From positions 64,001 to 128,000 of IMG/VR virus record IMGVR_UViG_3300042090_002370: a DNA stretch of 64,000 bases. One strand, written 5' to 3'. Below are positions 3,098 through 61,133 of this stretch, one piece after another (position 1 is the stretch's first letter; every line of letters starts with the position of its first letter). The notes under the pieces are model-generated. The model worked only from the letters and a program-made list of their open reading frames with translations. It made no database searches and had not been told where the DNA came from. This DNA comes from a virus. The position numbers and the translations under genes were made by a program.

Positions 3098-3107
3098 CTT
3101 ATTCCGC
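3098..3107 (-). promoter_or_regulatory. putative class I phage promoter motif GCGGAATAAG
   Basis: Recurrent intergenic motif; ends about 37 nt upstream of the helicase ATG. Confidence 0.6.
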
Positions 3108-3135
3108 CAACGCGAGACAATGTGCAGCCCCGCGG

Positions 3136-3218
3136 AGCTAAAAAAAGGCGGCGCAGGCCGGACCGTCAACATGGCTCCGTTTTCGAAGCCATGTCAACGT
3201 GCCGAAGCCCCTTTTTTC
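3136..3218 (-). terminator. long irregular hairpin (16-bp core 3164-3199) followed by U7-AGCU
   Basis: Minus-strand RNA CGUUGACAUGGCUUCG-AAAA-CGGAGCCAUGUUGACG pairs fully with 3 G-U wobbles; ends CCUUUUUUUAGCU; follows the 8111-3270 gene run. Confidence 0.65.
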
Positions 3219-3269
3219 TCGTGTCTTGTGGTGGCCCACAGCCGTAGCCACTAGGGGTTGTGGACGAGC

Positions 3270-3602
3270 TCAGACCTGCTCGGCGCCGCTTTCTCCGAGG
3301 TGGTCGCCGAGCCCTGTTGGGGGTTGTGCGCCGCCCCTTTGAGCGGTGACAGTATTGGCAGTGAGCTCGCCACCGCTCTCGAGGTGCTTCATGCCAAGGT
3401 CGAGCTCCATCATCTCACGCAGCTCCTTCAGCTTTGCGATGGTGGGTGGGGACCATGTGCTGTTGGTGGTCCACCCGTGCGTCTCCCCTGTCTTGGAGTC
3501 GACGAAGGCGGCCTTGGCCTTGAACTCCAATGTGGGGCCTAGGAAGACTGCTGTGAACTCGCCGACGGCCACGCCGTCAAACTTCGTGACTCCCTTGATC
3601 AT
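3270..3602 (-). CDS. hypothetical protein
   Basis: Coupled ORF in the minus-strand operon, phage-like codon usage. Confidence 0.75.
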   Translation of the reverse strand: MIKGVTKFDGVAVGEFTAVFLGPTLEFKAKAAFVDSKTGETHGWTTNSTWSPPTIAKLKELREMMELDLGMKHLESGGELTANTVTAQRGGAQPPTGLGDHLGESGAEQV

Positions 3603-3898
3603 TCTGCTTTCTTTCCTGCCAGGATAGAAAAGCCGCCTTGCATGTACTCGATGGCTTTGAGTAGGGCGAGCTCAGCGGCGCGGTCGAGTGTGGGCTCGTT
3701 CTGGTCGCAAGTGAGATTCACGACGGCTGTGATTTTCACGTCGCCGAAGTTCTGTGAGGTACCGACATTGAAGCCGACGTTTCCATGAATGGCTCCAGGT
3801 GTTGCGAGCTGAGCGAACTGGTCTTCCTTGAGGACCTCGCGTTTGAGAACCTCAGCCGGCCCGTCGCCCACTTGTACTTCTACGCGCACCTCGTTCAA
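3599..3898 (-). CDS. hypothetical protein
   Basis: 4-nt overlaps with both neighbours. Confidence 0.75.
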   Translation of the reverse strand: MNEVRVEVQVGDGPAEVLKREVLKEDQFAQLATPGAIHGNVGFNVGTSQNFGDVKITAVVNLTCDQNEPTLDRAAELALLKAIEYMQGGFSILAGKKAE

Positions 3899-4338
3899 GG
3901 CGTCACCAGCTTAGGTGGCATGTGATAATTCACAATTTCTTTGCGCACGAGGCTCACGACTTCGTCCTTGATCTTACTGTTGGGCATTGTAACGGCGGCG
4001 TCGAAGCGGCCTTTGTCGATGGCGTAAGTTGTTGTATTACTGATAGCGCCGCCCACTTGCAGAAAGAGCTCACGTCCTACTGCATCGTAGAGCGCTTCTG
4101 GATCGTACTTGACCGAGACCTGGTAGGCGTCGAAGGGGCCGCACTTCACCTCTTGTTGCCTCACCGCCTTCTCCGCTTGCTCCAGTTCGGAGTTGTACCG
4201 GTCTACGAGGTGTGCGAACTGTTCGAATACAGCCGCGTTGTCGGCCTTGAACTCCTCGAGTGCTGCTTTGGCGTCGAGAAATCTGAGTACCTCGAGAAAT
4301 TCCTCGGGCGGTTTTGTGACGATGCTCTTCTTCTTCAC
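3895..4338 (-). CDS. hypothetical protein (N-terminal coiled coil)
   Basis: 4-nt overlaps with both neighbours. Confidence 0.75.
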   Translation of the reverse strand: MKKKSIVTKPPEEFLEVLRFLDAKAALEEFKADNAAVFEQFAHLVDRYNSELEQAEKAVRQQEVKCGPFDAYQVSVKYDPEALYDAVGRELFLQVGGAISNTTTYAIDKGRFDAAVTMPNSKIKDEVVSLVRKEIVNYHMPPKLVTP

Positions 4339-5198
4339 TCGGATTCTCTTTCTAGTTCGTGGTGTAACTCGTCTGCTTCGACCTTCTCGCGCTCTGTCGG
4401 GATGACACCGAAGATTGCTTCGAGGTAGCTGTTGTACGTTTGTACGGCCTTGCGAATATCGCCAACGAATCTCTGAAATGGGTTGCCTGGGCCCTTGTCA
4501 GACAGTTGCCGCGCGACGTACGCCGGGTGCAGTGTGGGGACGAAGTAGTAGTAGACCTCATTCTGCTCTACTGGGTTCTGCCACTCCTTGCCGACTTTAC
4601 GTAACCATTGCTGCTTCTTTTCCGTGAGTACAGGTCGATAGCTCGCGCCAGGGATGGCGATCTGGGCAATCTCACCATGGTCACGTGTGATGGTGATACT
4701 GCGGCCGAGGAGCGCTTCGCACGCTGGCCCTCCGAGTCCCACGATGACGATGGGGTCGACCAGGTAGATCTCCTCGAGTAGCCGTGGCCTACACGCGCTC
4801 TTCTGCGGTGGCGTTGGCGGTTCGTCTCTGAACACCGGGTAGGAGATCTTCGTGCGATAGTCCATCCGCATCTGCGGTGAGCCGTCTGCTTGCGTTGCGA
4901 TGGCGCAAGAACGGCAGCAGACAATGTTGGTGATGTAGAAGTCTGTGAGCCCCAGGGTGTCTATGACACGGCGTAGAAGCTGACCGCTACGCCCAATGAA
5001 CGGCTCACCGTGTTGTTCTTCGTCTACACCGGGGCCCTCGCCGATGAACATTACGCTGTGATTGAAGCCGCGGCCGAAGACGAATTTGCCGTCTCGACGG
5101 ATGCGCTCTACGCCGAGATCACACTTGATGCAGGAGGACCAGTCCTCTCTCAGTGTAGCAAGTGACTTCCTGGCGTCTGGTCTAATGTCTTCGGACAC
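4335..5198 (-). CDS. uracil-DNA glycosylase family 4 (Fe-S type), with insertions
   Basis: CIKCDL, VFGRG, MFIGEGPG..E...GEPFIGRSG, TNIVCCR and LHPAY motifs; start moved to GTG 5198 (SD GAAAGG). Confidence 0.88.
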   Translation of the reverse strand: MSEDIRPDARKSLATLREDWSSCIKCDLGVERIRRDGKFVFGRGFNHSVMFIGEGPGVDEEQHGEPFIGRSGQLLRRVIDTLGLTDFYITNIVCCRSCAIATQADGSPQMRMDYRTKISYPVFRDEPPTPPQKSACRPRLLEEIYLVDPIVIVGLGGPACEALLGRSITITRDHGEIAQIAIPGASYRPVLTEKKQQWLRKVGKEWQNPVEQNEVYYYFVPTLHPAYVARQLSDKGPGNPFQRFVGDIRKAVQTYNSYLEAIFGVIPTEREKVEADELHHELERESE

Positions 5199-5772
5199 GC
5201 CGCTGCCTTTCAGCCTCAGCAGCAACATCCTGCGGCGTTGCAGACGTTGTGAGGCCAGTTTGATGCGCCATCGCGTCCTTGCGGTGCTGCTCGTTGAGCT
5301 CCTCTGCGTGCTGGCAGAATGCCCGAAGCGTGGCCTGATCATTTTTGTGCTGCTGACTGAAGACGTAGATGCTGTTCCCTCTTCGGAAGTGCATCATGGT
5401 GGGATGTAGGTTGAAGTCGATACCCCTGATTAGCGGCTGACGTTGTAAGCCCACCTGTGGCATTCTCGTCTCTGGGTCGACGAGCGGTTTGCCATCGGGA
5501 CCCGTGATAGCCACACGCGTTTCTTGTACACCGAAGAAATAGGTAGGAAAGAGCGTGAGGATGTCGGCCATCATGATGGCCTGCGCTGAGACCGCTTGCT
5601 TCGGCGGGTCATTCAGGCCCTTGGGCGCGTATGGATCTCTGAAGTCGAGTTGGTATACGCGGCCCAGGTAAGTCGCTGGCCCGTCCTGGATGCGTATCCA
5701 CGTCCCGTTCTTCGGGTCGGTTATTGGCTCGCCTTCGGCGTGTCCGTGAACATTTTCGGTGTCGTTTGACAT
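5182..5772 (-). CDS. hypothetical protein
   Basis: ORF with SD GGGAG, inside the operon. Confidence 0.7.
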   Translation of the reverse strand: MSNDTENVHGHAEGEPITDPKNGTWIRIQDGPATYLGRVYQLDFRDPYAPKGLNDPPKQAVSAQAIMMADILTLFPTYFFGVQETRVAITGPDGKPLVDPETRMPQVGLQRQPLIRGIDFNLHPTMMHFRRGNSIYVFSQQHKNDQATLRAFCQHAEELNEQHRKDAMAHQTGLTTSATPQDVAAEAERQRRVRRH

Positions 5773-7487
5773 GCTCGTCTCCCAACAATGTGTCCGATGT
5801 TTTCATAGGTGAGTGGACCGTCTTGGTCGGCGGGCCAGCTCAGCAGGTGCGAACGTAGCTTCTGGCACATTCCGATGAAGGGGCCAATATCGTCCTCGAG
5901 GAAAACGACGATGGGTTCCTTCTTGCCGCCCTTCTTCCTGAGTATGCGGCCCATAAGCTGCTGCAGTGCGTTGGCGCTCGAGAGCGGCTCGTTTACGATG
6001 ATGGTGTCGAGCGCGCGTTCGTTGAGGCCCTCTTTGCCGTACTTCATGATGGCGAAGGTGACCTTTTTCTCGCGTAGCATCTTTGCTCGTTGGTCTGGCT
6101 TGACCTTGTAGATCATGAGGCCGGCGTCGCTCTGCTGAGCGAGAAGCGTCTTGAGGTACTTGCTACGGGCCTTATTCCACAAGGCCTCGCACTTCTTGTA
6201 GACGCGATGACCATATAGCAGCTGGTTGAGCTGCGCTTTCTTGATGAGCTCACCCTGCAGAGCGGCGCTGTGGCTCGTACCGGAGAGCTTTTGGATGTGC
6301 CCGATGCAGACGCCGAGCTGTTTCTGGATCTTTTGAAGAGAACTCGGGTCGAGCTCGGAAGGCGGTGTCGTCTCGCCAACGTCCTGGGCGGAGGGAAATG
6401 GAATGTCCGTGATGAGTGTCTGCCCTTTGTTGTTCCATGCAGCGAGGAGGTTCACGAGTGCGTCTACGCTCTTGGATAGAACCAGCACTTTCCGGTCGTT
6501 GGCTACTGCTTGGCGAATCTCACTTAGCACGAAGTCGATGCGCTTCGGCCATGCACCAAGAAAGCTCGCAATCTTGCCGATGTGTAGCTCACCATTCTTG
6601 TCACGTGCAGCGGCCTGTACGCGTGGGTCGCTTGTGTCGAGGCCCATTCCTGTCCAGACAAAGTAGAACTTAGGCTTCAGGTCCTGCCGTAGGTTCTTGT
6701 AGATGACTGGGCCTAGATGAAAGTTGTAGATGACGTGGTAGCCATCTTCGCGATCGGGGGTGGCTGTCAGGGCTAGCCTGTAACCGTAGAAAAGGTCGGC
6801 GGTACGCGCGAAGGTCGGAGCTGCGATGTGATGCCCCTCGTCCCATATGATGGTTCCGAACCATCGACGCGCCTCTTCTGGAAACAGATGGGCCTTTGCA
6901 GCCAGCGTGTGGTACGTCGCGATAACTACAGGCTTCTTCCAATCAAAGTGCTCGCCCTGTATCAGCCCGATGCCATCAGGTACCTCAAGGCAGTCGGCTA
7001 TCTCTTCGCGCCACTGGCGTATGAGCTCGGTTGTATCGAGGATAATAAGAAGAGGGACGCCGCGGCGCGCGGCGAAGTCCAGGGCAACAACAGTCTTCCC
7101 GCCACCGCAGCGAAGTTGGAGCACTCCCCCCCGTGAGGAGAGGAGTGCATTCATGGCCTCTTGCTGCGTGCGTTCGCCTGTGGGTACGAGTTGTCCGTTC
7201 TCTACTGTATGGTCGAGCTTTACCTTGCTCCGGATGTCCACTTTCGTGTAGTGCTGTGGCCGGCAGTCAATGACTGGGAATGCGTAGTCCTCTGGCTTCC
7301 AGAACTCTCGAGGTAGCAGTAGATGGTGCTCAGTCTCTCGGTAGAGTGTGAGGAGCGTAACCGCCTGCCTGTCGAAGAACTCAAATGTCAGCGCGTTCTT
7401 AGTGCCTTGTACATTTATCGCGCTCTTCGGACACCAGAGCATTGTATCGAGATACCCGACGTCAGGGCGGCGGACTAGCAGTTGCAT
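5721..7487 (-). CDS. superfamily 2 helicase (XPB/UvsW-like)
   Basis: LRCGGGKT, DEGHH, LTATPDR, KEGLN and QLMGRILR motifs; ~100-aa insert in the second RecA domain. Confidence 0.88.
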   Translation of the reverse strand: MQLLVRRPDVGYLDTMLWCPKSAINVQGTKNALTFEFFDRQAVTLLTLYRETEHHLLLPREFWKPEDYAFPVIDCRPQHYTKVDIRSKVKLDHTVENGQLVPTGERTQQEAMNALLSSRGGVLQLRCGGGKTVVALDFAARRGVPLLIILDTTELIRQWREEIADCLEVPDGIGLIQGEHFDWKKPVVIATYHTLAAKAHLFPEEARRWFGTIIWDEGHHIAAPTFARTADLFYGYRLALTATPDREDGYHVIYNFHLGPVIYKNLRQDLKPKFYFVWTGMGLDTSDPRVQAAARDKNGELHIGKIASFLGAWPKRIDFVLSEIRQAVANDRKVLVLSKSVDALVNLLAAWNNKGQTLITDIPFPSAQDVGETTPPSELDPSSLQKIQKQLGVCIGHIQKLSGTSHSAALQGELIKKAQLNQLLYGHRVYKKCEALWNKARSKYLKTLLAQQSDAGLMIYKVKPDQRAKMLREKKVTFAIMKYGKEGLNERALDTIIVNEPLSSANALQQLMGRILRKKGGKKEPIVVFLEDDIGPFIGMCQKLRSHLLSWPADQDGPLTYENIGHIVGRRACQTTPKMFTDTPKASQ

Positions 7488-7490
7488 CCT

Positions 7491-8111
7491 CTACTCCCTT
7501 CTTTCTTCCGGCTTCTTCTCTGGTACGGCCGCCTTCATGACATGCGTGTCGAACCAGTGCGCTGCAACGTGGCCTATGGCTTTGCCGAGGCCTCGTAAAA
7601 GTTGCCTGATGAGCGGCGACCACCAAGACTCACCGGGATGCCTCAGCTCCTCCGCAGACAGGAATGGTGGTACGGCGTAGGTTGAGGCCCATGTTGGGTA
7701 TGGGTGCTGTGGGTAAGGCACACCGTACTGAGAGCCTATAGCAGCTACCCGTTCAGCCTCCACTCTGCGGACGTACTCACCAAAGTTGGATGCCGGTGCT
7801 GGTGGGGAGTACGGGCGCGAGAATGGTTGTGGTGCAGGTTGTGGTGCAGCCTGCGCTTCGGGTGGTGGCGTAACTATAGGCGGTCTAAAGAGGTTCTGTG
7901 CGGGGATGACGCTACTAAGCGTCGCCGCGACACGGCTGCCGCAGGAGTTGAAGTAGTTACACTGATAGCGCACGTTCTTCCCGTTGTCGGGATTGACGTA
8001 GTTTGCGTCGGGCCCGCCTGCGCACGCGGGATGGTTCCTGTTCCAGAGCTTCGGGTTGCCGAAGCAGTCGGGCGGTGCTTCTCGATTGGTCACGGTGACC
8101 GGTACGTTCAT
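7491..8111 (-). CDS. hypothetical protein, Cys-containing N-terminus and Pro-rich linker
   Basis: SD GGAGGT; first gene of the minus-strand operon. Confidence 0.7.
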   Translation of the reverse strand: MNVPVTVTNREAPPDCFGNPKLWNRNHPACAGGPDANYVNPDNGKNVRYQCNYFNSCGSRVAATLSSVIPAQNLFRPPIVTPPPEAQAAPQPAPQPFSRPYSPPAPASNFGEYVRRVEAERVAAIGSQYGVPYPQHPYPTWASTYAVPPFLSAEELRHPGESWWSPLIRQLLRGLGKAIGHVAAHWFDTHVMKAAVPEKKPEERRE

Positions 8112-8147
8112 GCAGACCTCCGTATACTACTGGTGGCGATTCTAGTT

Positions 8148-8157
8148 CTTATCCCGC
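8148..8157 (-). promoter_or_regulatory. putative class I phage promoter motif GCGGGATAAG
   Basis: Ends about 37 nt upstream of ATG 8111; divergent intergenic region. Confidence 0.65.
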
Positions 8158-8181
8158 TTTTCGTGCGCCATTGGCGCGGTG

Positions 8182-8187
8182 TAAGAT
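8182..8187 (+). promoter_or_regulatory. putative -10 element TAAGAT, leaderless-type start
   Basis: Exactly 7 nt before in-frame ATG 8195, no SD. Confidence 0.5.
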
Positions 8188-8194
8188 AGACCGC

Positions 8195-9697
8195 ATGCAA
8201 ACTAGCGGCCTGATTCTAGACGTGTATGATGACATCGACGGATCTGTGCTGCGGTCGGTCTACCCGACACGCGAGAGTATTCCGCAGACAGTGAAGGAGG
8301 CACACGTACTGAGCTACGAGGAGCGACGCACGCTGCCTGATGACGTATTCGCGCTCATTCTTCTGAACAATGGGGAGTCTCTGCGCAAGTACGCATGCAT
8401 CGACGCAGGAGGAACAGCGCTCGCTGTGGAGTACTTCCTCAAGACGGCCTACAAACTTCCGGTCGAGGCGCAGAAGACCGCTGCAGAGAATCTCTGCACG
8501 GCCTGCGGCTGGTACGATGTCGAGGCCCCCGAGCAGCTACAGAAAATGGCGGGCATTATCAGCGGCGCATTTGGCCTGGCCACGGCTGTGCCGACCGTGA
8601 CCGGAACGGCACGCGAAATCAAAAACAACCTGGCGAACGTTCGTCAGGGAGAGGCTATGGGGGCCAACATTGTGGTTCCAGGCGGCGCGCCTGGAATGCC
8701 GAAAGTTGCTGAGGCGAGTGGGACAGCTCTCCTACCGAATCAGCCTACGCTCGGTCTCCCTTCGGCATCGAAGACCGTCATTCAGAAGACCGCACGCCTC
8801 GGTCGGCTTGTGGCATCCGAGCGCTCTCACCATGGTGGTGAGCAGGCGGTCGAGCCGGATGTCGTTCACCCGCCTACACACGAGCAGAAGGGCAAGCTCC
8901 CGCAGGCCGGACACCTACGCCCTACTTGCGACGTAACGAACTTCGAGGCGCCGGCTCGAATGCATGAGAAGAAGGGTAGCGTCTTTGCGCTTCCTTCTGA
9001 GGGCAAGTACCCGCTCGACACCTACGATCAGGTGAAGACCGCGAATCATTGGTACTCCCAATACGCCAACCACCTGACGCCGGACAAGCGCCGTGAGTTC
9101 GCCACCAACTTCATGAAGCGTGCGAGCGAGCTCGACATCAGGACGGACAACTACGACCTGAAGCGCTACGGATCGAACACGCCGGCATCCGAGGCTGAGA
9201 TCAAGGCAGCCTTCGACGCCAGGCGGCTTGAAGTTGCGCACAACGACGCGGCGCTCCAGCTCCTTGGAGAAGTCGAGAAGGTGGCCCGTACACGCATCTG
9301 GCGGGACGCAGGCACCATCGTCGAGCTCTCACCAGAGCAGATCTGCGGAGTCGTCGAAGAGTTCGACAAGGTCGCCGGACTCAACCATCGCTACGATGTC
9401 GTTCCCGACCCGTACTATACGATGTTCGGTGTGGAGAAGAACGCAGATGGAAAGAAAGACAACAACGACCCGGCATGGAGCGATCAGATCGCTAACGATT
9501 GTGTTACGAGCGCTGATTTGCATCGGCTCGCTCAGATCGGCGCTCTCAGCGTGAAGACTACGTTCGGCAATGATTTTCAGGAGGAATTCCTCAAAGACCC
9601 AGTAGGGATGTACGAGAGCCTGCCTCGCACGCAGAAGAAGATGTTGATGCGTATGGCGAACAGCACCCAGCCTGGAGTAGAACGTACCTACTTCTAG
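8195..9697 (+). CDS. putative virion/head-associated protein (K-x-A rich)
   Basis: Long ORF opening the structural cluster; two FAL...KY.(I/L)D segments; many KTA/KVA/KMA motifs. Confidence 0.7.
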   Translation: MQTSGLILDVYDDIDGSVLRSVYPTRESIPQTVKEAHVLSYEERRTLPDDVFALILLNNGESLRKYACIDAGGTALAVEYFLKTAYKLPVEAQKTAAENLCTACGWYDVEAPEQLQKMAGIISGAFGLATAVPTVTGTAREIKNNLANVRQGEAMGANIVVPGGAPGMPKVAEASGTALLPNQPTLGLPSASKTVIQKTARLGRLVASERSHHGGEQAVEPDVVHPPTHEQKGKLPQAGHLRPTCDVTNFEAPARMHEKKGSVFALPSEGKYPLDTYDQVKTANHWYSQYANHLTPDKRREFATNFMKRASELDIRTDNYDLKRYGSNTPASEAEIKAAFDARRLEVAHNDAALQLLGEVEKVARTRIWRDAGTIVELSPEQICGVVEEFDKVAGLNHRYDVVPDPYYTMFGVEKNADGKKDNNDPAWSDQIANDCVTSADLHRLAQIGALSVKTTFGNDFQEEFLKDPVGMYESLPRTQKKMLMRMANSTQPGVERTYF

Positions 9698-9705
9698 GAG
9701 GCGGC

Positions 9706-10491
9706 GTGTCGACTCTGGATAATGACCAAGCCTTCCTCGAGGCCCTTGAGAGTATCGGTGACAAGAAGAAGCTGCCGAAGATCGAAGGCGACCCCACAGT
9801 CATCGTTGAGGAGGGAAGTACAGATGCGCCGTCTGTTACCACGACTGTTCAGGCGCCCCCCGAGAACGTGACGGCGAAGAATATCTGGCGTCATCCAGAT
9901 GCGCACCCTATTGCGCTCGATTTCTTCCTTCTGCGTAGGTACGGCCATAGTTGGCTTGAATGGGAACCGGAGACCCTGCAGACGCTCATCCCAGAGGATT
10001 TCGGCACGCCGCTCCTCAGTGACCTCAACCTCTCGAAGCTACAGGCCTGTAAGACGCTGCATCTCGTCGATACATTCTGGCAGCAGTGGGAGATCTTCGT
10101 TGCCTGCCTGCGCCCCTTCAACAATGAGTTCCCCGACTTCGCCGTGATGCCCGCCCCCACAGTTGCAGAGGTATTGGTGGCATGTGACGTGGCAGCCCGT
10201 ATACGTGACGACGTGGCGTGGTCTACGGAGATGAAGGAGTACGTCAAGGTTGTCTACAAGCACGACGGGATCTTCCTACCGCTACCGCCTGCGGACTTCA
10301 TCACGCTTGAGGCGCCCGAGGAGATTGATCAGAAGCAACTCGCGGTGCGGTGGAATGAGGTACGCTCTACCGACAAGCCACCTGTTGGCGAGACGCACAT
10401 GGACGAGCAACTACGGCGGCTACTGACTGCGAATGACATTCTCGAGGAGAGCCGTGCGCGTCTACAGCGGCAGCTGAATCTACATGCTTGA
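9706..10491 (+). CDS. hypothetical protein
   Basis: SD AGGAGG before GTG. Confidence 0.8.
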   Translation: MSTLDNDQAFLEALESIGDKKKLPKIEGDPTVIVEEGSTDAPSVTTTVQAPPENVTAKNIWRHPDAHPIALDFFLLRRYGHSWLEWEPETLQTLIPEDFGTPLLSDLNLSKLQACKTLHLVDTFWQQWEIFVACLRPFNNEFPDFAVMPAPTVAEVLVACDVAARIRDDVAWSTEMKEYVKVVYKHDGIFLPLPPADFITLEAPEEIDQKQLAVRWNEVRSTDKPPVGETHMDEQLRRLLTANDILEESRARLQRQLNLHA

Positions 10492-11485
10492 GGCTACAAT
10501 CCACGCTTTCCGCGATGAGCTCCGTAAAGAGGCGACAACGCCGCTACTTGGGGCTCCGGGGCTGCTGCAACGGGCCAAACCAGTGTTACAGCGGGCAGGC
10601 GCACTCGGGGGCGTCGGTGCTCTCGGGGGGGCGGCTATTGGCGCTGGCCTAGGGGGTGCAAAGGGATACCGCGAGGCACGCGCAGAAGGGGCTGGAGTGG
10701 GCGGCGCAGCGTTACATGGGCTCCTCGGCGCCGGTGGCGGGGCTATACGCGGCGCCGGTTACGGCGCCCTGGCCGGAGCAGGTGCGGGCGCTTTTTCGAA
10801 GCTGGACACTAGCAAGCTCACTGCCGGTGAGGGCCTAATTCACAGCGCAGCCCGTTCTGGGCAGCGGCAGGTACACGCTCTCACAGGAATGCTAACGCCA
10901 GGTGAGCTTGAGGGGGTCCGCGGCGGTGCGTTTGACGCCAGGAAAGCGTTGGAGACCGCCAGGGGATTACCGCATGAAGCTAAAGCTCAAAAGGCCTTCA
11001 CGGCTGCTGACACGGCTCAGCACATGGGGCTTACCAGCGTTCCTGGCTATCTGAGAGCATTGAAAGACCGGCCAGTTAGTGAGGTTCTCGGTGCCAGCGC
11101 AAGGGAGCAGTATCACGGCATGCACCCTGCGCTGGGGGCGGTTATGGTTGGTCTGCCGGCCGCATCGGCAGTAGGTACACTTGCTAATAAGGAGAGCCCT
11201 ACCGGGCCAGGTAAGGGTGAGGAGCTCGGTCGTAATTTAGGTGGGGCTGTTGGTGGCGTAATGGGTGGGATGATGCCGGTGGGCGGCGCTGAGGTGATGA
11301 ATCGTCTGGGCACGGGCGCTGGCGCCGGCGTCGGCCGCGTCATCGATCGTATCCGTGGGCGCAAGCCTCTAGTCAATGACCTAGGCAACCCCAGCACGCT
11401 CGAACCTACCGAGTCGCAGAACACACCCAGTGAGCGCGTTACGAGCCCCTCAGCGGCAGGTGGGCAGAAAGATATAGGGCTGTGA
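10484..11485 (+). CDS. Gly/Ala-rich (glycine-zipper) putative virion protein
   Basis: GxxxG repeats after the N-terminal ...FRDELRKEA segment; directly upstream of portal. Confidence 0.7.
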   Translation: MLEATIHAFRDELRKEATTPLLGAPGLLQRAKPVLQRAGALGGVGALGGAAIGAGLGGAKGYREARAEGAGVGGAALHGLLGAGGGAIRGAGYGALAGAGAGAFSKLDTSKLTAGEGLIHSAARSGQRQVHALTGMLTPGELEGVRGGAFDARKALETARGLPHEAKAQKAFTAADTAQHMGLTSVPGYLRALKDRPVSEVLGASAREQYHGMHPALGAVMVGLPAASAVGTLANKESPTGPGKGEELGRNLGGAVGGVMGGMMPVGGAEVMNRLGTGAGAGVGRVIDRIRGRKPLVNDLGNPSTLEPTESQNTPSERVTSPSAAGGQKDIGL

Positions 11486-11486
11486 A

Positions 11487-14400: not shown

Positions 14401-14852
14401 AAATGCAGGGGCAGGGTGGAGGTCCAGGTGGCGCCGGCGGCGAAGGCGCGATGCGGACAATGCCTGTGGAGATGCAGGCCGCTGGGGCCGGCGCGAGCGG
14501 TATGGCTGCGCCACCCGCGCAGCCTACGGACCCGTCGCCGCAGGACTTTCTCTCGTCGGTCTCGAGCCAGCTTACGGGTGAGACGAGACTGAACCAGGAG
14601 CAGAGCCAGAAGGGTATTGACCTTCCCACTTATGCGATGGGCCAAGCAAAGCTACTCGTAACGATGGCTAAGCCTCAGCAGGAACAGGCCCTGAGAAACA
14701 TTCAGGCGATGAGCCCGGAGCTCGCCGACCTGGTGAAGCAGATGCTGGCTGAACTGCAGCCGCAGGAGCAGGCTGATAGCGGTAGTGCTGGCGTAGACAC
14801 GCGACCTCTACCGCAACAGCGTCCACCGCGACGAGCGGGCGGGATGGTGTGA
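11487..14852 (+). CDS. portal protein (intein-containing precursor)
   Basis: YYFLTNPLINAVV, DYFAYGNG, FHMRR..GWG.P.L.P, GMGVP..F.G...YA portal-like pattern; ~688 aa after intein removal. Confidence 0.75.
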   Translation: MSFVGPGGAVASGPASGLRFAQSRGRIQGSNVTGVNYPSPFFDVAHTYLPVTVKAMFKWCRYYFLTNPLINAVVFKLSEYPVTDIIIDHPSNEVKRRWTDYFQDHLRWQPFRVEAGLDYFAYGNGCISLGFPFKKYLYCKNCAFRDEAGKIRAQWIFTSFQFRLTCPKCGYVGDALAKDFYYKNASGIKTIRWNPEDIEITYNDISGEYTYFYTIPATVRNDIVIGRKDIVEGVPQVFIQAMREQKGVIFSKDNFFHMRRPTLATQDRGWGTPLLLPVLKDTFYLQVMKKAQEAILLEHIVPLRVLFPQAGSGSSDPYCVSPETLVETPSGLLPAAEVREGEFLRSHTGAWRRVEYQKRRQIKPAEKVFKFQIASLPAFPFAVSEDHPILAVPRVSRKKPRAGLVDPTFIEAKALKKGDYVAYPIKRQIRRGQMLDLADYVTERAATDSWVYRRLSQSAAEAYEWLEQNADPVHAWGERKKLLEEKGWSEADYATAAAARREPKVDRVSRFLPMCPALGSLIGYYLSEGSYGGSTVSFSLHLEEKDFAELIESAVKRLGFRGVSHYERPEQHGRTVVIEDVILSELLVSMCGSGFAEKRIPDVVSEASDVIVLDMLRALFNGDGCDFKTTTDRVGLKLANPSMIMEARRLLLSFGLIGGVVKEEPTATTKFRTTSYQLNYNGHAAYKLRHLFGRPGGFDWQELPQKSGLVRGDYVLLRIDAVHEVADVPEVIGFQMAEDKSFCVAGVATHNTTINLIDWRDQVAAEIARWRYDNNYIPIMPLPLGNQTIGGDGRALMLTQEITTWSDQILNGMGVPVEFIRGGLSYAGTNVSMRMMENMFLGYISRQKALAKFVMKQVSSFLGWPEANIRFKPFKMADDLQRKAYLFQLNQANKVSDTTLLADSDLDQDEENEIMIRETDKRIEATKKQQLAMARIQGEAQQIMMKFQTKAQQDAQQAMGAPAAPGEPGGIEMQGQGGGPGGAGGEGAMRTMPVEMQAAGAGASGMAAPPAQPTDPSPQDFLSSVSSQLTGETRLNQEQSQKGIDLPTYAMGQAKLLVTMAKPQQEQALRNIQAMSPELADLVKQMLAELQPQEQADSGSAGVDTRPLPQQRPPRRAGGMV
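12441..13739 (+). mobile_element. intein with LAGLIDADG homing endonuclease in the portal gene (433 aa)
   Basis: Starts CVSPETLV, block B SEDHPIL, LIGYYLSEG and LFNGDG endonuclease motifs, ends ATHN followed by Thr. Confidence 0.92.
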
Positions 14853-14901
14853 CCGGCCGTCAGCCGCGAGCTGCTCGCCAGGCGGAGCGTAAGGCGAACA
14901 G

Positions 14902-14934
14902 GTAGCTAAAAAAAGGGGCGGCACTGCCGCCCCT
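14902..14934 (-). terminator. intrinsic terminator with U7-AGCUAC tail
   Basis: Perfect 9-bp stem AGGGGCGGC/GCCGCCCCT (14914-14934) then TTTTTTTAGCTAC on minus; abuts the stop of the 14934-15155 gene. Confidence 0.85.
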
Positions 14935-15155
14935 CATTTGCATGATTCCTCGACGATGGCTTCGGCGAGGTCGACGCGCCACTGTTCATCGAGGCGCTTT
15001 CGGTCCTCGTAGGTCTGGTAGGGAACTGAGAGGAGGAACCGGTAGCAGCGGCTGACGCTCTCCGGCGACCGGTCCTCCACTTGGTTAGGTCCTGACCATA
15101 TCCAGCGACCGCGATCGTTCCACCAGTACCCGGTATGCGGGAACCATGTGCGCAT
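14934..15155 (-). CDS. small Trp-rich hypothetical protein
   Basis: 1-nt overlap with the upstream gene; ends at the terminator. Confidence 0.6.
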   Translation of the reverse strand: MRTWFPHTGYWWNDRGRWIWSGPNQVEDRSPESVSRCYRFLLSVPYQTYEDRKRLDEQWRVDLAEAIVEESCK

Positions 15156-17862: not shown

Positions 17863-17870
17863 GTTGGTCT

Positions 17871-19164: not shown

Positions 19165-19186
19165 TAGTGTTCAACCTATTTCCGCG

Positions 19187-54465: not shown

Positions 54466-54475
54466 GCGGTATAAG
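54466..54475 (+). promoter_or_regulatory. putative class I promoter motif GCGGTATAAG
   Basis: About 23 nt upstream of the HNH gene ATG. Confidence 0.55.
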
Positions 54476-54497: not shown

Positions 54498-55313
54498 ATG
54501 GAAGAGAAGCGACTCGGACGGAAACCAAGAACCTCATGGCCGCCATGCAAAGCAGAAGGATGCGCGAAGACCGCCGAGGGCGGGTCGCATGGCTTCTGCC
54601 AAACGCACTACATGGCAGCTCGTCGCGGGCGGCTGGACAAGGCGACTGGTGCAGCGCTGCGTCCAGCGAAGCGCGTGCGGAGCTACGGCCCGGGTGCCCG
54701 CTGCGTGGTTCATGGCTGCGGCCGGCGGCCGAAGGCACGCGCGCTCTGCATCATGCACTACAACCAGTTTGTGGACGGGAAGGACTTGGGAGTCGAGCTC
54801 GCCGGCGACTCCTTTGTGAAGACCGTATACCCACCTACGGCCTGCTGCATTCTGCCTGGATGCGCCAACCGACCGGTCAATCGCTGGATGTGCTCCAAGC
54901 ACACGCAGCAGAGGGAGGCGGGTATCATCAGCGAGCAGGGGGAGCCATTACGCCCATTGATGCCAAACAAGGGGCCGAAGCGGAAGGACGGTTCCATCAT
55001 CGATGGGGCAGGCTACGCACTGGTCATGCCGCCTTCTGGCTACCAGGGGAAGACCCGGCAGGGGCGCGTCCTGGAACATCGGCTCGTGATGGAGCAGAAG
55101 CTGGGGCGGCTCCTGGAGCGCTGGGAGATTGTCCATCACAAGAACGGTGTGAAGCCGGACAATCGTCCAGAGAACCTGGAGCTCATGACACAGCGAGAAC
55201 ATCCGCCTGCACACGAGTACACCCTAGAGCAGGCAGAGCTGGCACTCAACGCGCTTCAGCAGAACGACCCAGAGGCGTACGTGGCGCTGATGGCGAAGCG
55301 GTTTGCTATGTAG
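54498..55313 (+). CDS. free-standing HNH endonuclease with three N-terminal C..GC..C..H fingers
   Basis: EHRLVME..LGR.L...EIVHHKNG.KPDNRPENLELM; inserted between sheath and tube genes. Confidence 0.9.
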   Translation: MEEKRLGRKPRTSWPPCKAEGCAKTAEGGSHGFCQTHYMAARRGRLDKATGAALRPAKRVRSYGPGARCVVHGCGRRPKARALCIMHYNQFVDGKDLGVELAGDSFVKTVYPPTACCILPGCANRPVNRWMCSKHTQQREAGIISEQGEPLRPLMPNKGPKRKDGSIIDGAGYALVMPPSGYQGKTRQGRVLEHRLVMEQKLGRLLERWEIVHHKNGVKPDNRPENLELMTQREHPPAHEYTLEQAELALNALQQNDPEAYVALMAKRFAM

Positions 55314-55318
55314 CATCT

Positions 55319-55351
55319 AAGAAGGAGCAGCCCTCCTTCTTTTTTAGCTAC
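55319..55351 (+). terminator. intrinsic terminator with U-tract-AGCUAC tail
   Basis: AAGAAGGAG-CAGCC-CTCCTTCTT-TTTTAGCTAC. Confidence 0.85.
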
Positions 55352-55371
55352 CCGTCCGGTACGCTGGAGAT

Positions 55372-55775: not shown

Positions 55776-56534
55776 ATGGCAGGGAACTTCAGCGACTGGG
55801 CACCATACACCAACTACGTACAGGCCGGTCTCGTCGACGGAACGTACGCCAACGCGGGCTATACGATGCTCGCAGCGGGGCCGCCCCGTCTGTCGAACAT
55901 CGGAGGCAATGCCGCCATTGCGGGTGCGGTCTCGGGTAACGGCCAAGCCGCCAACCAGATCGTCTTCCCCATCGGCATCGTTCAGAACTTCAACCTCTCC
56001 CACACGCGGCAGTTCTCCCGCATCTTCGAGATCGGCTCCGAGCGCAGCTACTTCATCGGCGGCCGGACCGTGGGGCAGATTGGACTGGGGCGCATCTACT
56101 ACTGGGGCGCGTCGCTCTTGCGCATCCTATACGCGTACTACCAGAACCTCATCCCCCCGACGCTCATCCCGGCGATGTTTCCGAATGCCGGCGCCGCGGC
56201 GATGTCGAACCCACACGACGTCATCATCCCACCAGGCTACGACAACATCTTCGTCAACCTGGCATCCGACCTCTTCACGCAGCCGGTCGGCATCCTGATG
56301 TACGTGCGCGACATCAACCTCGACACGCTGGCGGCCGTCTACTTCGAGGCCTGCTACCTGCCGAACCACAGTTGGGCGACCGACGCACAGGGTGTCCTCA
56401 TCCAGGAGTCGGTGGCCGTGCAGTTCGAGCGCGCGGTGCCTGTCCAGGTCTCCGAGCTCACGCTCGTGACGAACACCACGAGCTCGAACGCCGGCGGCGC
56501 CAACGCCACGTTCCCCGGCATCCCTGGGTCCTGA
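55776..56534 (+). CDS. tail tube protein
   Basis: PIGIVQNFNLSHTRQFSRIFEIGS and YFEAC...IQESVAVQFER tube-like pattern; follows the sheath gene. Confidence 0.75.
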   Translation: MAGNFSDWAPYTNYVQAGLVDGTYANAGYTMLAAGPPRLSNIGGNAAIAGAVSGNGQAANQIVFPIGIVQNFNLSHTRQFSRIFEIGSERSYFIGGRTVGQIGLGRIYYWGASLLRILYAYYQNLIPPTLIPAMFPNAGAAAMSNPHDVIIPPGYDNIFVNLASDLFTQPVGILMYVRDINLDTLAAVYFEACYLPNHSWATDAQGVLIQESVAVQFERAVPVQVSELTLVTNTTSSNAGGANATFPGIPGS

Positions 56535-59597: not shown

Positions 59598-59802
59598 CGG
59601 TCATATCCTCCAAGATGTCCTGCTCATGCCTCTGCAGGTACGCTTCTACGATGAGCGCGCCCAGCTCGCCAGCGCTTACGCTTAGGTGCCGGCCGCTATC
59701 TTTGCGCTTCTTTCGTACAAGGGCCAGCGTGATCCTGAAGAGGGCGGCGGTCTTGCCGTCGAGGATCAAGTCCAGTGGACCGATGCGGTCGTCGAGGGCC
59801 AT
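59380..59802 (-). CDS. hypothetical protein (N-terminal ~80 aa look real; long overlap with the next gene)
   Basis: ATG just after the terminator; helical, possibly DNA-binding. Confidence 0.5.
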   Translation of the reverse strand: MALDDRIGPLDLILDGKTAALFRITLALVRKKRKDSGRHLSVSAGELGALIVEAYLQRHEQDILEDMTDEVERLAAEAVVGIRRRKSVSGLPNPYRRRHTRRPAADCEVPQVPHDGGDAGAHERGGAAPNSADSGDQAAE

Positions 59803-59817
59803 GTAGAGTCAGTACCA

Positions 59818-59856
59818 CAAATAAAAGAGGCCGCCCTACGAATAGAGCGGCCTCTT
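59818..59856 (-). terminator. intrinsic terminator after the C1 protease gene (no AGCT tail)
   Basis: minus: AAGAGGCCGCTCTA-TTCG-TAGGGCGGCCTCTT-TTATTT. Confidence 0.8.
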
Positions 59857-59885
59857 GGGCCCGTGAGCCCGAAGACATGAGTATA

Positions 59886-60716
59886 TCAGAACTCGAGGTC
59901 AGGCATTCGCGTCAAAACCCAGAGGTCGTTCAGCTGAACCCATCCAGCCCAGGCGTCGTCGATGAGGAAGTGGCCGTTGTCGCCGTAGGCGGCACCCCAG
60001 GAGTTCCTGATGCGCCACACGCGCGCCCCGTCGATGTAGTGCACACCGGTGAAGCAGGTGGAGTGACCGCCGATGATGTCGTTGGCGCTGGGGATGGTGA
60101 GGATCTGCCCCTCTTGGTAGTTCTGGATGGCCGAGCTCACCGGTGACCCGTAGATAACGGGGTGGTTAGAGCGAATGGCCGTCTCGAGTTGATCGAGTCG
60201 ACTGGTGCCACCGCTCGGCGCTAGCGCGTCGATGTTGAACCACGCGGTGAACTTGTTGTCGCTCGCTTCGGGGTAGGTGTCCGGCGTTGGGGAGTTGTAG
60301 AGGTTCGAATCCCCATACGCCCAGACCTTCTCCTCACAGACACCGATGTTGCCGACGCGGTCTACGGCAAGGTGCGTGTACGTGCCTGAGTCCTGCGTGG
60401 TCGTACCCATCTGTAGGCGGCACTGCCAGTAGAGGAAGAGGCGAGACAGCATGTCGACCGAGCTCCCCTCGACAGCGAGCACGATGTTAGCTGCACCGCA
60501 GGTAGAGTTGAGTACGCACGACCCGATGTCGCCCTGGTCGTAGACCGGCGGTTCGTTCGGGATGTCGTAGTCGTTACCGTCCTGCGCCTTCGGCGACGCC
60601 TTCTTCTTGAAGGCCTTCTCGACCGTGGTGAAGGAGACCACTGGGTCGAGCCGCGCCTTGATCTTCGCAGGCATCGTAGAGTCGGGCAGGTAGCCTTTTG
60701 TCGCCATTACTTGCAT
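59886..60716 (-). CDS. papain-like cysteine peptidase (family C1)
   Basis: YDQGDIGSC (Gln/Cys), GGHS (His), RNSWG..YGDNG (Asn); start set at ATG 60716. Confidence 0.9.
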   Translation of the reverse strand: MQVMATKGYLPDSTMPAKIKARLDPVVSFTTVEKAFKKKASPKAQDGNDYDIPNEPPVYDQGDIGSCVLNSTCGAANIVLAVEGSSVDMLSRLFLYWQCRLQMGTTTQDSGTYTHLAVDRVGNIGVCEEKVWAYGDSNLYNSPTPDTYPEASDNKFTAWFNIDALAPSGGTSRLDQLETAIRSNHPVIYGSPVSSAIQNYQEGQILTIPSANDIIGGHSTCFTGVHYIDGARVWRIRNSWGAAYGDNGHFLIDDAWAGWVQLNDLWVLTRMPDLEF

Positions 60717-61084
60717 TTCATCACCGCCTGGCACGAGGAAGCTGCCGCTATGCAGACCGCGTGGAGATCCACGCCGGCGTCGCCATCGATTCGGCACTGA
60801 ACGGCCCAGCCTACCCCATGTAGGTCGGGTCCACCGATGAGTCGGCCGCGGCTGTCCGTGCAACCGAGCGCGAGTAGCTTGGCCTGGCCTGCAGCGCAGG
60901 CATCAACAGGACCTGGGGGAGAAGGCGCAGCGTCTGGAGAAGCCGCCTCAGGTGCGGCTGCCTCTACGACAGGTACTGCGGCGTCAGTACACGGAGACGG
61001 TGCGCAGTTGGGGATGGGGACAGGTGGCGTCTGCGGGCATGCCGTCAGCGCTACGAGGGCCAGTGTATAGATGAGGTTTCTCAT
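60707..61084 (-). CDS. Cys-rich lipoprotein
   Basis: Signal peptide II MRNLIYTLALVALTA-C, Pro/Ala DAA/EAA linker, Cys-rich C-terminus; TACAAT-N7-ATG upstream. Confidence 0.8.
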   Translation of the reverse strand: MRNLIYTLALVALTACPQTPPVPIPNCAPSPCTDAAVPVVEAAAPEAASPDAAPSPPGPVDACAAGQAKLLALGCTDSRGRLIGGPDLHGVGWAVQCRIDGDAGVDLHAVCIAAASSCQAVMKCK

Positions 61085-61123
61085 GCGGCAGATTGTACCG
61101 GTGGCGCAACCAGAAAGCCAGTA

Positions 61124-61133
61124 AAGGAATAAG
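61124..61133 (+). promoter_or_regulatory. putative class I promoter motif AAGGAATAAG
   Basis: Upstream of the right-hand plus-strand accessory genes; divergent from the lipoprotein gene. Confidence 0.5.

Follow-up and report, generated by a model that had tools for sequence, protein, structure and literature searches.

We report that the octamer GG(N)ATAAG, which recurs in front of non-structural genes in a 64-kb window (the whole stretch of phage DNA analysed, 64,000 nucleotides of a 163,859-bp contig), forms the extended -10-like core of a two-part signal, very likely a promoter. The reading we favor, at a probability of roughly 60%, is that a phage sigma factor of the Arash gp10 family, most likely together with the phage's own single-chain RNA polymerase, reads this signal for the non-structural transcription units. 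A preceding sequence-only reading had proposed a promoter for non-structural genes read by the phage polymerase itself; the promoter and the class of units it serves stand, whereas the polymerase core alone as reader does not. Given the sigma70-type geometry of the promoter and an occurrence that tracks the gp10-family sigma, the specificity determinant is most likely this sigma, not the core alone. The genes served comprise replication helicases and a primase, a MoxR/VWA pair, small genes and a homing endonuclease (Table 1).

Table 1. Predicted promoters and terminators, and reference genes, in the 64-kb window
Feature	Position	Strand	Upstream element	Core	Predicted start	PWM score	Genes and remarks
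P1	3091-3125	-	GCAC 3122-3125	GGAATAAG 3098-3105	G 3091	22.6	DnaB-like helicase 1646-3061; DnaG-like primase 660-1649
P2	8141-8175	-	GCCA 8172-8175	GGGATAAG 8148-8155	8141	23.6	206-aa ORF 7491-8111; SNF2/ResIII helicase 5721-7487
P3	19148-19182	-	GAAA	GGAATAAG 19155-19162	19148	23.4	Last genes of the minus-strand unit: MoxR-like AAA ATPase 16666-17862; DUF2201 metallopeptidase/VWA protein 15155-16669
P4	19372-19406	-		GGGATAAG 19379-19386	19372	26.0	51-aa acidic ORF 19187-19342, divergent from the RNA polymerase gene
P5	19409-19443	-	GCAA 19440-19443	GGCATAAG 19416-19423	19409	17.3	
P6	28096-28130	-	GCAA 28127-28130	GGGATAAG 28103-28110	28096	31.5	Unit of ~285 nt, small ORFs, ending at terminator 27806-27850
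P7	54448-54482	+	GCCA	GGTATAAG 54468-54475	54482	21.2	HNH_3 homing endonuclease 54498-55313, inserted in the structural block
P8	61106-61140	+	GCAA 61106-61109	GGAATAAG 61126-61133	61140	26.0	65-aa ORF 61150-61347, then subsequent genes
Intragenic copy	6171-6178	-		GGAATAAG			No -35 element or Y-G pair; under the PWM threshold
Terminator of P6 unit	27806-27850	-					GC-rich hairpin, T5, AGCTAC; -18.4 kcal/mol
Terminator of P3-P5 unit	14902-14948	-					10-bp GC hairpin, T7, AGCTAC; -20.4 kcal/mol
Terminator-promoter junction	3134-3180	-					T-run then AGCTCC directly upstream of P1; weak hairpin
RNA polymerase, single-chain β-β′, multisubunit type	19436-25915	+					2159 aa
Portal	11487-14852	+					Unit without motif
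Large terminase	31783-33615	+					Unit without motif
Major head protein	42230-43354	+					Unit without motif

An exact search of the window returned all seven intergenic copies named earlier, at the same coordinates and on the same strands, and GGDATAAG matched eight times against 2.28 expected, a number reached by none of 100 dinucleotide shuffles. The eighth match lies within the SNF2/ResIII helicase ORF, is devoid of the upstream and downstream elements described below and probably occurs by chance. One further intergenic copy, GGCATAAG, has C at position 3 and a perfect GCAA upstream element (P5). The whole contig contains 28 copies of GGNATAAG where a third-order Markov model predicts 5.7 (Poisson p = 2e-11), with 22 of the 28 in the 14.3% of sequence called non-coding (binomial p = 4e-14); GGGATAAG is the 8-mer most enriched between genes (12 intergenic copies vs one coding). 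A Shine-Dalgarno sequence and a start codon follow within 70 nt in the sense direction for 19 of the 22 intergenic copies, compared with two in antisense, in agreement with the expected enrichment in front of genes over ORF interiors and antisense. The equal offset noticed at three copies also holds, the last G of the motif lying 36 nt from the ATG at 3061, 8111 and 19342, while the distance to the start is 16-22 nt at the remaining copies. Every virion gene that could be identified conforms to the claim that none is preceded by the motif: GGNATAAG was not found before the portal, large terminase or major head protein genes, all in plus-strand units, and the copy at 54468 sits within the structural block yet precedes an HNH homing endonuclease.

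The octamer is only the core of the full signal, which reads GCAA, 16 nt, GGNATAAG, 5 nt and pyrimidine-G. With the start site placed at the G of this last pair, as suggested by its spacing and conservation, GCAA spans -34 to -31, G-G-N-A-T-A-A-G spans -14 to -7, and the pyrimidine and G occupy -1 and +1. In an alignment of 21 sites, information peaks at GCAA (alignment indices -20 to -17), at the core, at an A/G right after the core and at the Y-G pair (indices 13-14), whose G is present in 20 of the 21 sites. The pair is retained even when the Shine-Dalgarno sequence lies 20-30 nt further downstream; in many copies, TGGAGG starts exactly 5 nt past the core. Housekeeping -10 elements carry a conserved T at -7. 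This position is G in all 63 sites pooled from three phages, with no A, C or T; the separate counts are 30 G vs 2 T for Salmonella phage Arash and 27 G vs 3 T for Vibrio phage D69. The statement that the motif matches no sigma70 -35/-10 pair is thus correct for the consensus letters but not for the architecture, which is that of the sigma70 family (-35, extended -10, start site). Sites fitting the sigma70 consensus in positions 1-20000 of the window numbered 6 vs 6.6 expected, and none coincides with a motif copy.

P4 has an orthologous promoter at the same place in relatives. P5 stands in tandem with it, 37 nt upstream, with a -35 element lying over the opening codons of the polymerase ORF, which is encoded on the opposite strand. 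A lineage-specific terminator tail, a T-run followed by AGC, is found on the promoter strand in this contig (G000), Arash and D69, suggesting that the core enzyme is not that of the host. A wetland metatranscriptome contains patchy contigs of the phage, which show neither transcript ends nor strand; the deepest (27859-28084, depth 11.4) falls within the P6-to-terminator unit.

Contrary to what had been supposed, the motif also occurs outside this phage. Two related metagenomic phages, G001 and G004, carry the same signal, with 18 and 21 PWM matches, respectively, against 0-1 in reversed controls, and these include the orthologous site beside the polymerase gene; it is also present in a phage-like segment of a Pendulispora (Myxococcota) chromosome. 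No 8-mer in Arash is more over-represented than GGTATAAG (31 copies vs 3.4 expected); 30 of the copies are on one strand, and the N5-T-G/A spacing is retained. One Arash copy stands 12 nt upstream of a tRNA-like gene without Shine-Dalgarno sequence or ORF, which indicates that the signal acts in transcription and not in translation. D69 has a variant, TG(T/C)TATAAG-N5-T-G/A, with CAATAA upstream. The group with this promoter is one of widespread large phages with their own bacterial-type RNA polymerase and sigma.

Every motif carrier has an RNA polymerase of this one lineage together with a gp10-family sigma, the latter predicted for our contig from synteny. Homologues of Arash gp10 were detected in G004 (8e-25) and G001 (6e-18), that of G004 matching Pfam Sigma70_r3 (3e-13), and the family profile matches solved SigA at 2e-13 and FliA at 2e-6. 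The family is single-copy in both Arash and D69, regions 2, 3 and 4 are present in complete relatives, and a second Pfam-recognisable sigma was not found in the complete genome of G001. A motif copy lies upstream of the sigma gene itself in G004, G001, Arash and L058 (at 37 nt in L058). The sigma gene was not found in the 164-kb contig, which is estimated to be 88% complete, and synteny would place it just off the contig ends. As D69 has a gp10-type sigma but no GG dinucleotide, the sigma-motif pairing is correlative and has drifted.

The fused β-β′ RNA polymerase recognized by the sequence-only reading is indeed encoded (Pfam Rpb2_6 2e-58, Rpb1_2 1e-24, Rpb1_5 4e-18), and its orthologues are 59-67% identical. 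Its gene belongs to the virion-gene block, with the portal upstream and the terminase and major head protein downstream, and no GGNATAAG promoter was found for it on its own strand; since both the polymerase and the structural genes are devoid of the motif, a second transcription route must exist. The suggestion that the polymerase is virion-borne holds for the relative Arash, where polymerase gp206 gave the most spectra of the virion proteome and gp216 and sigma gp10 were also present, although the authors noted that abundant proteins might be carry-over (PMC10585845); for the phage studied here, it is an extrapolation. The predicted sigma-polymerase complex scored 0.75 against 0.00 for the best control, a mark that 58 of 80 solved complexes but just 2 of 110 mismatched pairs attained, with at least 25% of contacts shared between runs and partner pLDDT of at least 67. 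The modelled interface puts sigma residues 34-77 on β′ clamp helices 1210-1242; being the textbook sigma2/clamp-helix interface, it may owe its pass to likeness to solved holoenzymes, and a bacterial β′ in place of the phage one would probably pass too.

We propose that a phage-encoded sigma70-family factor (Arash gp10 family) recognizes the GCAA plus GG(N)ATAAG promoter, most likely in partnership with the phage's own single-chain β-β′ polymerase, and that G instead of T at -7 would set the signal apart from host housekeeping promoters. The putative holoenzyme would serve small genes of early type, the replication genes and homing endonucleases as well as the operon that encodes sigma, in units that end at hairpin/U-tract terminators followed by AGC(TAC). 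By analogy with Arash, polymerase and sigma would probably enter with the virion and launch the programme. In this view, a self-contained viral transcription machine probably uses the motif as its start signal.

The same promoter and sigma could instead work with the host core, redirected as by T4 gp55 or SPO1 gp28/gp34, the phage polymerase being reserved for another class, such as late genes. We consider this rather unlikely, even though phage sigmas usually redirect the host core (Iyer et al. 2021, PMC7824862, and established knowledge), the promoter geometry is exactly of the bacterial-holoenzyme type and the motif-free polymerase and structural genes require a second polymerase/promoter pairing anyway. 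What speaks for the phage core is the co-inheritance of sigma and polymerase in every relative examined, their joint presence in Arash virions (PMC10585845), the clamp-helix surface of phage β′, predicted to accept sigma albeit through the textbook interface, and the lineage-specific tail of the terminators. Recognition by the phage polymerase without any sigma70-family protein, either unaided or through a non-sigma subunit as in phiKZ/AR9, was the original interpretation and now appears improbable. The lack of a sigma gene in the 164-kb contig would fit it, as would the absence of sigma homologues from other phage multisubunit polymerases (PMC7824862), but the missing gene maps to an assembly gap, complete relatives sharing the motif encode a sigma with regions 2-4, and the features seen here are hallmarks of sigma dependence, namely an extended -10-like core preceded at a constant 16 nt by a -35 element and followed at the canonical distance by Y-1/G+1.

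Two further readings are very improbable. A host polymerase with a host sigma, either housekeeping or alternative such as sigma28, would explain a superficial likeness to extended -10 promoters and, in spacing and GATAA letters, to sigma28 promoters; it conflicts with the invariance of G at -7, the position of the conserved housekeeping T, with sigma70-consensus sites not being in excess, with invariant GG at the CC positions of sigma28 and N in place of its G before ATAA, and with a distribution following phage lineage and not host (Salmonella, Vibrio for the variant, probably Myxococcota). Nor does a function as operator, bound by a phage DNA-binding regulator, or as an RNA processing or translation signal account well for the data: proximity to the Shine-Dalgarno sequence, often as TGGAGG, is suggestive of such a role, but the Y-G spacing stays fixed when that sequence is distant, the Arash tRNA-like gene has none, and the asymmetric motif is strictly co-oriented with downstream genes, heading terminator-ended units and occurring in short divergent intergenic regions that need a promoter.

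The preferred sigma-polymerase reading sets this signal among several known systems. Bacterial sigma70-family holoenzymes use extended -10 promoters, TGnTATAAT with or without TTGACA. The phage signal shares their G at -14 and A-T-A-A at -11 to -8. It likewise has an upstream element at a distance of about 17 bp, and its predicted start, with pyrimidine/purine at -1/+1, falls 7 nt after the core; in D69, the core even reads TG(T/C)TATAAG. The signal differs by G for T at -7, by G at -13 and a free -12 in this phage, by GCAA/CAA instead of TTGACA upstream and by a cognate sigma that is viral. Sigma28 (FliA/SigD) promoters follow the consensus TAAA-N15-GCCGATAA, similar in their four-letter A-rich upstream element, spacing of ~15-16 nt and eight-letter downstream element with GATAA, but here GGN replaces the defining CGA, the upstream letters differ, and the gp10-family profile is nearer SigA than FliA. 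Phage sigmas with private promoter classes include T4 gp55 (late TATAAATA) and SPO1 gp28 and gp33/34, likewise viral sigma70-family proteins that set up a promoter code different from that of the host and time the expression of one class of phage genes. T4 and SPO1 lack a polymerase core, however, while this lineage encodes a complete β-β′ enzyme, which is a single fused chain in the wetland phages and accompanies sigma in the Arash virion. Jumbo phages of the phiKZ/AR9 type, with virion and non-virion multisubunit RNA polymerases, also encode relatives of bacterial β/β′; the virion-borne form serves early genes, and transcription does not depend on the host enzyme. They differ in using short A/T-rich signals at the start site. 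Their polymerases are divided into four or five pieces and lack a sigma homologue (PMC7824862), whereas the lineage described here combines a single chain, a bona fide sigma in relatives and a bipartite -35/-10-type promoter.

The word GGDATAAG occurs eight times in the window against 2.28 expected, a number reached by none of 100 dinucleotide shuffles. Seven of these matches are the intergenic copies listed by the sequence-only reading, all of which were recovered, and the eighth (6171-6178) falls within the helicase ORF. Scanning with a position weight matrix derived from sites of the same genome added an intergenic copy with a C at the third position (19416-19423, minus strand), and the eight-nucleotide core is therefore written here as GGNATAAG. 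Over the whole contig this core is found 28 times against 5.7 expected (p 2e-11), and 22 of the copies lie outside gene calls, that is, in 14.3% of the sequence (p 4e-14), which agrees with the rarity inside ORFs anticipated by that reading. Its proposal that the copies face the downstream gene was likewise borne out, since a Shine-Dalgarno (SD) sequence and a start codon follow within 70 nt for 19 of the 22 intergenic copies in the sense direction, against two of 22 in antisense; the equal offset from the start codon that it reported for three sites is correct and amounts to 36 nt. The most intergenic-enriched 8-mer is GGGATAAG, with 12 intergenic occurrences and a single coding one.

An alignment of 21 sites, in which the first G of the core (positions 0-7) was taken as index 0, uncovered a second block, GCAA, at indices -20 to -17 (G in 15, C in 16, A in 15 and A in 18 of the 21 sites), separated from the core by a spacer of exactly 16 nt; A or G is conserved at 8-9 and a pyrimidine-G (Y-G) pair at 13-14 (20 of 21 sites each). 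Such a pair of elements with a fixed spacer (about 16-18 bp) is what characterizes sigma70-family promoters and, judged from its sequence, the GGNATAAG signal is of that geometry, with an extended -10 element. Even sites whose ribosome-binding sequence comes another 20-30 nt later (such as 3098, 19155, and 46123 and 143760 of the genome) retain the Y-G pair, which must accordingly be more than a piece of the Shine-Dalgarno sequence; its G is, by indirect argument, the predicted transcription start. If this G is +1, the core would span -14 to -7 and GCAA -34 to -31, and the promoter of the lineage can be summarized as GCAA-N16-GGNATAAG-N5-YG.

The resemblance to known promoter classes stops at defining letters. 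The A at -11 is invariant, and the T expected at -7 of a -10 element is never present: with the Y-G pair used as a filter, the sites pooled from three phages show 63 G and no A, C or T at this position. The core appears to work like a -10 element, yet not like the housekeeping one. Pairs matching the sigma70 consensus number six in window positions 1-20000, against 6.6 expected, and none coincides with a GGNATAAG site, so that the original statement that the motif does not match sigma70 promoters stands for the consensus letters and fails for the geometry, which is of the -35/extended -10 type. Promoters of the sigma28/FliA type, with a -10 of GCCGATAA carrying CGA and a -35 of TAAA, differ from the invariant GG, free base and upstream GCAA found here, and the letters at the defining positions rule out both a sigma28 and a sigma54 reading. 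Promoters of the phiKZ/AR9 type consist of a short A/T-rich start-site signal with no -35 and no sigma homologue, whereas the present signal is bipartite. We consider it very likely that the motif is a promoter of a sigma-dependent kind, probably tied to an unusual virus-encoded holoenzyme. A full-text literature search for GGGATAAG or GGTATAAG in a phage or promoter context returned nothing relevant. Promoters go unmentioned in the paper describing the cultured Salmonella phage Arash (PMC10585845), so that the present promoter is reported neither there nor in the literature covered by the full-text search.

Features of the window and candidate signals
Feature	Coordinates	Strand	Remarks
DnaB-like helicase; DnaG-like primase	1646-3061; 660-1649		promoter-headed
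206-aa ORF; SNF2/ResIII helicase	7491-8111; 5721-7487		promoter-headed
MoxR-like ATPase, then DUF2201 metallopeptidase/VWA protein	16666-17862; 15155-16669	-	end of a promoter-headed unit
51-aa acidic ORF	19187-19342		promoter-headed; divergent from polymerase gene
Short unit of small ORFs	28096 down to terminator 27806-27850		promoter-headed
Free-standing HNH_3 homing endonuclease	54498-55313	+	own GGTATAAG promoter; amid structural genes, terminator after it
65-aa ORF	61150-61347		promoter-headed
Portal	11487-14852	+	homologous to Arash gp204 (2e-73); motif-less unit
Large terminase	31783-33615	+	motif-less unit
Major head protein	42230-43354	+	motif-less unit
Intrinsic-type terminators	3134-3180; 14902-14948; 27806-27850	-	GC hairpin and T-run
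Intrinsic-type terminators	45084-45130; 55306-55351	+	GC hairpin and T-run
(T)GGTAC(G/C)CT sites, window	28149-28155; 30176-30182; 55359-55365
(T)GGTAC(G/C)CT sites, genome	30197; 155368

The distribution of the motif over the transcription units follows the sequence-only reading in that no copy precedes a recognisable virion gene, the units of the portal, large terminase and major head protein all being devoid of it. The portal homologue contains an intein-like insert with a LAGLIDADG domain and exceeds its orthologue in G001, a related metagenomic contig, by about 425 aa; an intein-like insert, with Hint/intein-splicing and LAGLIDADG matches, is also present in a 941-aa protein (36036-38861, plus strand). 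The polymerase gene lacks the GGNATAAG motif as well, and its neighbors 25921-27195 and 27192-27809 gave no informative family matches. For some jumbo phages, a MoxR/VWA chaperone pair has been suggested to help assemble the virion (PMC7824862); here, the MoxR-like AAA+ ATPase and DUF2201-VWA pair (15155-17862, minus strand) belongs to a unit under GGNATAAG promoters. The replication unit also encodes a protein of the uracil-DNA glycosylase superfamily (9e-21; 4335-5342, minus strand), and a papain-family C1 cysteine peptidase (1e-11; 59886-60716, minus strand) lies past the structural block. One wetland metatranscriptome run yielded 18 small contigs identical to the phage, with uneven coverage compared with the even coverage of a DNA run; such contigs show neither 5' ends, strand nor level, and uncovered parts carry no meaning. 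The deepest of them (27859-28084, depth 11.4) lies inside the predicted unit that runs from 28096 to its terminator, which fits the promoter model.

Transcription units end with a GC hairpin and a T-run, followed by AGCTAC. The corresponding pattern TTTT[CT]?TAGCTA is found 13 times in the genome and never in controls. Its counterpart in Arash, TTTTTAGC, occurs 14 times on the promoter strand and not once on the other, and that of the cultured Vibrio phage D69, TTTTTTAG, 14 times against one. This ending may be one at which the phage polymerase, specifically, terminates.

A second promoter class was sought upstream of the genes devoid of the motif. K-mer enrichment returned only the terminator tail and Shine-Dalgarno words, GGTAnnnT was not enriched (177 versus 200 in the control), and the polymerase and structural genes gave no convincing signal of any kind. 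A TAnnnT-type word, (T)GGTAC(G/C)CT, stands 6-12 nt before several start codons that have no Shine-Dalgarno sequence, and also upstream of the polymerase gene in the relatives L001 and L004. GGTAC(G/C)CT is mildly enriched (19 in total, of which 7 intergenic, versus 10 in the control), a difference that is not statistically secure; the word may represent a second promoter class giving leaderless mRNAs.

The window covers positions 64,001-128,000 of an IMG/VR virus contig, which is single and linear, with 163,859 bp, 58.8% G+C and an estimated completeness of 88%; a megablast search of 11 kb of the window found no match among 50,697 phage records. Orthologues of its RNA polymerase with 59-67% identity are encoded by six IMG/VR contigs, of which the two longest are G001 (193,844 bp, complete) and G004 (121,428 bp), and the nearest isolates by polymerase are the Vibrio phages D69, D148 and D181 (30% identity) and Arash (33%). 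The promoter had been described as private to this phage, a claim that did not survive the comparison, as matching sites exist in G001, G004 and Arash and a variant in D69. The matrix retrieved 18 sites in G001 and 21 in G004, whereas the reversed sequences used as controls gave 0 and 1. Almost every site in the two contigs continues with N5-(T/C)-G and then with a Shine-Dalgarno sequence and ATG; the strict form GCAA-N16-GGNATAAG occurs five times in each contig and not in the controls. Next to the polymerase gene, the small acidic gene is preceded by a site that is orthologous in this phage, L001 and L004, and persists as GGAACAAG in L002 and GAGATAAG in L006, two further relatives.

The Arash genome has 36 copies of GGNATAAG on one strand and 7 on the other (7-8 in controls), and the most over-represented 8-mer of the genome is GGTATAAG (31 versus 3.4 expected). 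The Arash sites display T-G/A, likewise spaced by 5 nt from the core, and weakly conserve a CAA-type element upstream, and almost all precede a Shine-Dalgarno sequence and ATG; a tRNA-like gene starts 12 nt after one of them, as would be expected if the signal acts in transcription and not in translation. The D69 version dispenses with the GG and reads TG(T/C)TATAAG-N5-T-G/A; CAATAA stands upstream of it, and G is again strongly preferred at -7 (27 G versus 3 T). The presence of the signal in this phage, Arash and D69 indicates that the promoter type follows the phage lineage across hosts whose genomes have 45-63% G+C.

The promoter type co-occurs with the polymerase and with a sigma factor of the Arash gp10 type. 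The only convincing plus-strand copy in Arash stands just before gp9-gp10, the sigma operon, and the sigma gene also lies downstream of a copy in G004, G001 and L058, a contig from a metagenome-assembled genome (MAG), the distance in L058 being 37 nt. Arash gp10 matches Pfam Sigma70_r3 (9e-9) and, weakly, r2 (0.0036); it has homologues in G004 (8e-25; Sigma70_r3 3e-13) and G001 (6e-18), and the family is also represented in D69, in a segment of the Pendulispora rubella chromosome and in two MAG contigs. It comprises at least 143 metagenome clusters, often on contigs of 170-200 kb. A 30-member alignment displays region 2-like, region 3.0-like and C-terminal helix-turn-helix blocks with a conserved YDPxRGAALNTH; a search with the family profile hits SigA chains of solved structure (2e-13, covering regions 2.3-3.1) and, with query residues 75-247, Bacillus subtilis SigA as far as region 4. 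Regions 2, 3 and 4 thus follow in the order that defines the sigma70 family. Arash and D69 each have a single match to the profile, and the complete genome G001 has no further Pfam-recognisable sigma. A second sigma, with Sigma70_r2 above the Pfam cut-off, is encoded by Arash (gp196, OQ632216.1 120,656-121,693) and D69 (VPHD69_0246, OZ195729.1 133,187-133,963), with no homologue in this contig or in G001-G005; that of Arash is absent from the portion of the published virion protein table covered here (PMC10585845), and this second sigma may direct a later gene class.

Within the present contig, searches with Pfam Sigma70 r2, r3 and r4, Arash gp10 and the G001 and G004 sigmas found no sigma factor. 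In G001, G004 and the Pendulispora segment, the gene lies between homologues of the genes at ~157-163 kb and 5.0-8.2 kb of this contig, an interval that spans the contig ends and would place the gene in the missing ~12%, downstream of the predicted promoter at genome 163,327. Short tandem repeats occupy both ends (genome 1-60, AGTGCGGCGG..., and 163,800-163,859, GGTCGCGGTCG..., both outside the window) and are the probable reason why the assembly stops short of the place where the sigma gene is expected. Two ORFs that follow a 1149-aa protein had been considered as sigma candidates by position, by analogy with Arash gp8-gp10: 54498-55313 turned out to be the HNH endonuclease and 55776-56534 had no detectable similarity; the 1149-aa protein itself is not homologous to gp8.

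The segment of the Pendulispora rubella chromosome (complete, 13.6 Mb, Myxococcota; CP089983.1, 9,221,145-9,241,924) is syntenic with the phage and carries the sigma gene, homologues of the 1015-aa, 600-aa and 1199-aa proteins, and GG(N)A(T/C)AAG sites. The same genes are found on two contigs, L057 and L058, binned as Myxococcales and Deltaproteobacteria MAGs. There are hints of Myxococcota as hosts, with an integrated or carried phage state as a possibility.

The sigma probably serves the core enzyme of the phage, that of the host being a less likely alternative. The fused polymerase announced by the sequence-only reading is real, since ORF 19436-25915 encodes in one 2159-aa chain the domains of beta (Rpb2_6 2e-58, Rpb2_3) and then those of beta' (Rpb1_1, Rpb1_2, Rpb1_5). 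The NADFDGD motif is invariant in six orthologues, as in bacterial-type multisubunit (two double-psi beta-barrel) enzymes. According to the Arash paper, the polymerase subunit gp206 tops all proteins in spectra from purified virions, which also hold the second polymerase piece gp216 and the sigma gp10; its authors caution that abundant proteins may have been carried over (PMC10585845). Four points favor the phage core: sigma and polymerase are co-inherited; both are found in Arash virions; the polymerase gene sits among virion genes, an arrangement conserved between Arash and the window; and the T-run with AGC tail, common to this phage, Arash and D69, would be needless for a host enzyme. Complex prediction for the G004 sigma and a fragment of the polymerase from the same contig (residues 1012-1470) gave a score of 0.75 (best control 0.00) for a textbook sigma2/clamp-helix interface, a result that may derive from likeness to solved holoenzymes. 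Among reference cases, 58 of 80 solved complexes attain this score, as do 2 of 110 mismatched pairs; here it goes with at least 25% contact agreement between runs and a partner pLDDT of at least 67. In the model, sigma residues 34-77 lie against the predicted clamp helices at 1210-1242; it points to a clamp-helix surface retained in the phage beta' rather than to binding by this particular pair, and a bacterial beta' would probably pass as well.

Our most far-reaching interpretation, to which we assign a probability of about 0.45, is that of a widespread, mostly uncultured lineage with a portable, virion-packed holoenzyme, made of a beta-beta' core and a sigma70-family factor, that has its own promoter and terminator codes and would start infection without the host polymerase. 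The lineage so defined covers contigs of ~160-195 kb with a single-chain or two-piece core and relatives in Salmonella, Vibrio and probably Myxococcota; its codes are an extended -10 with G at -7, and a U-tract followed by AGC. The same signal exists in cultured Arash, whose virions contain polymerase and sigma, and the hypothesis is therefore testable at the bench. The T-to-G switch at -7 suggests a simple rule, open to test, by which such promoters would be orthogonal to those of the host; it is relevant to the reading of the -7 base by sigma region 2 and to the design of orthogonal expression systems. The motif is also a practical key to annotate transcription units across many uncultured phage genomes.

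Phages are known either to encode a sigma factor that borrows the host core, as in T4 and SPO1, or to carry a fragmented polymerase that works without sigma, as in phiKZ and AR9. The presence of a sigma homologue in relatives of this phage sets its polymerase apart from the phiKZ/AR9 type and, if the far-reaching interpretation is true, its configuration is intermediate between phages that have only a sigma and those of the phiKZ type, which lack one. In a survey of jumbo phages from 2021, sigma factors turned up only where the phage had no polymerase of its own, the polymerase-encoding phages of group 1 (phiKZ-type) being devoid of sigma (PMC7824862); in contrast to this pattern, the present lineage, whose genomes fall short of jumbo size, seems to possess sigma and polymerase together.
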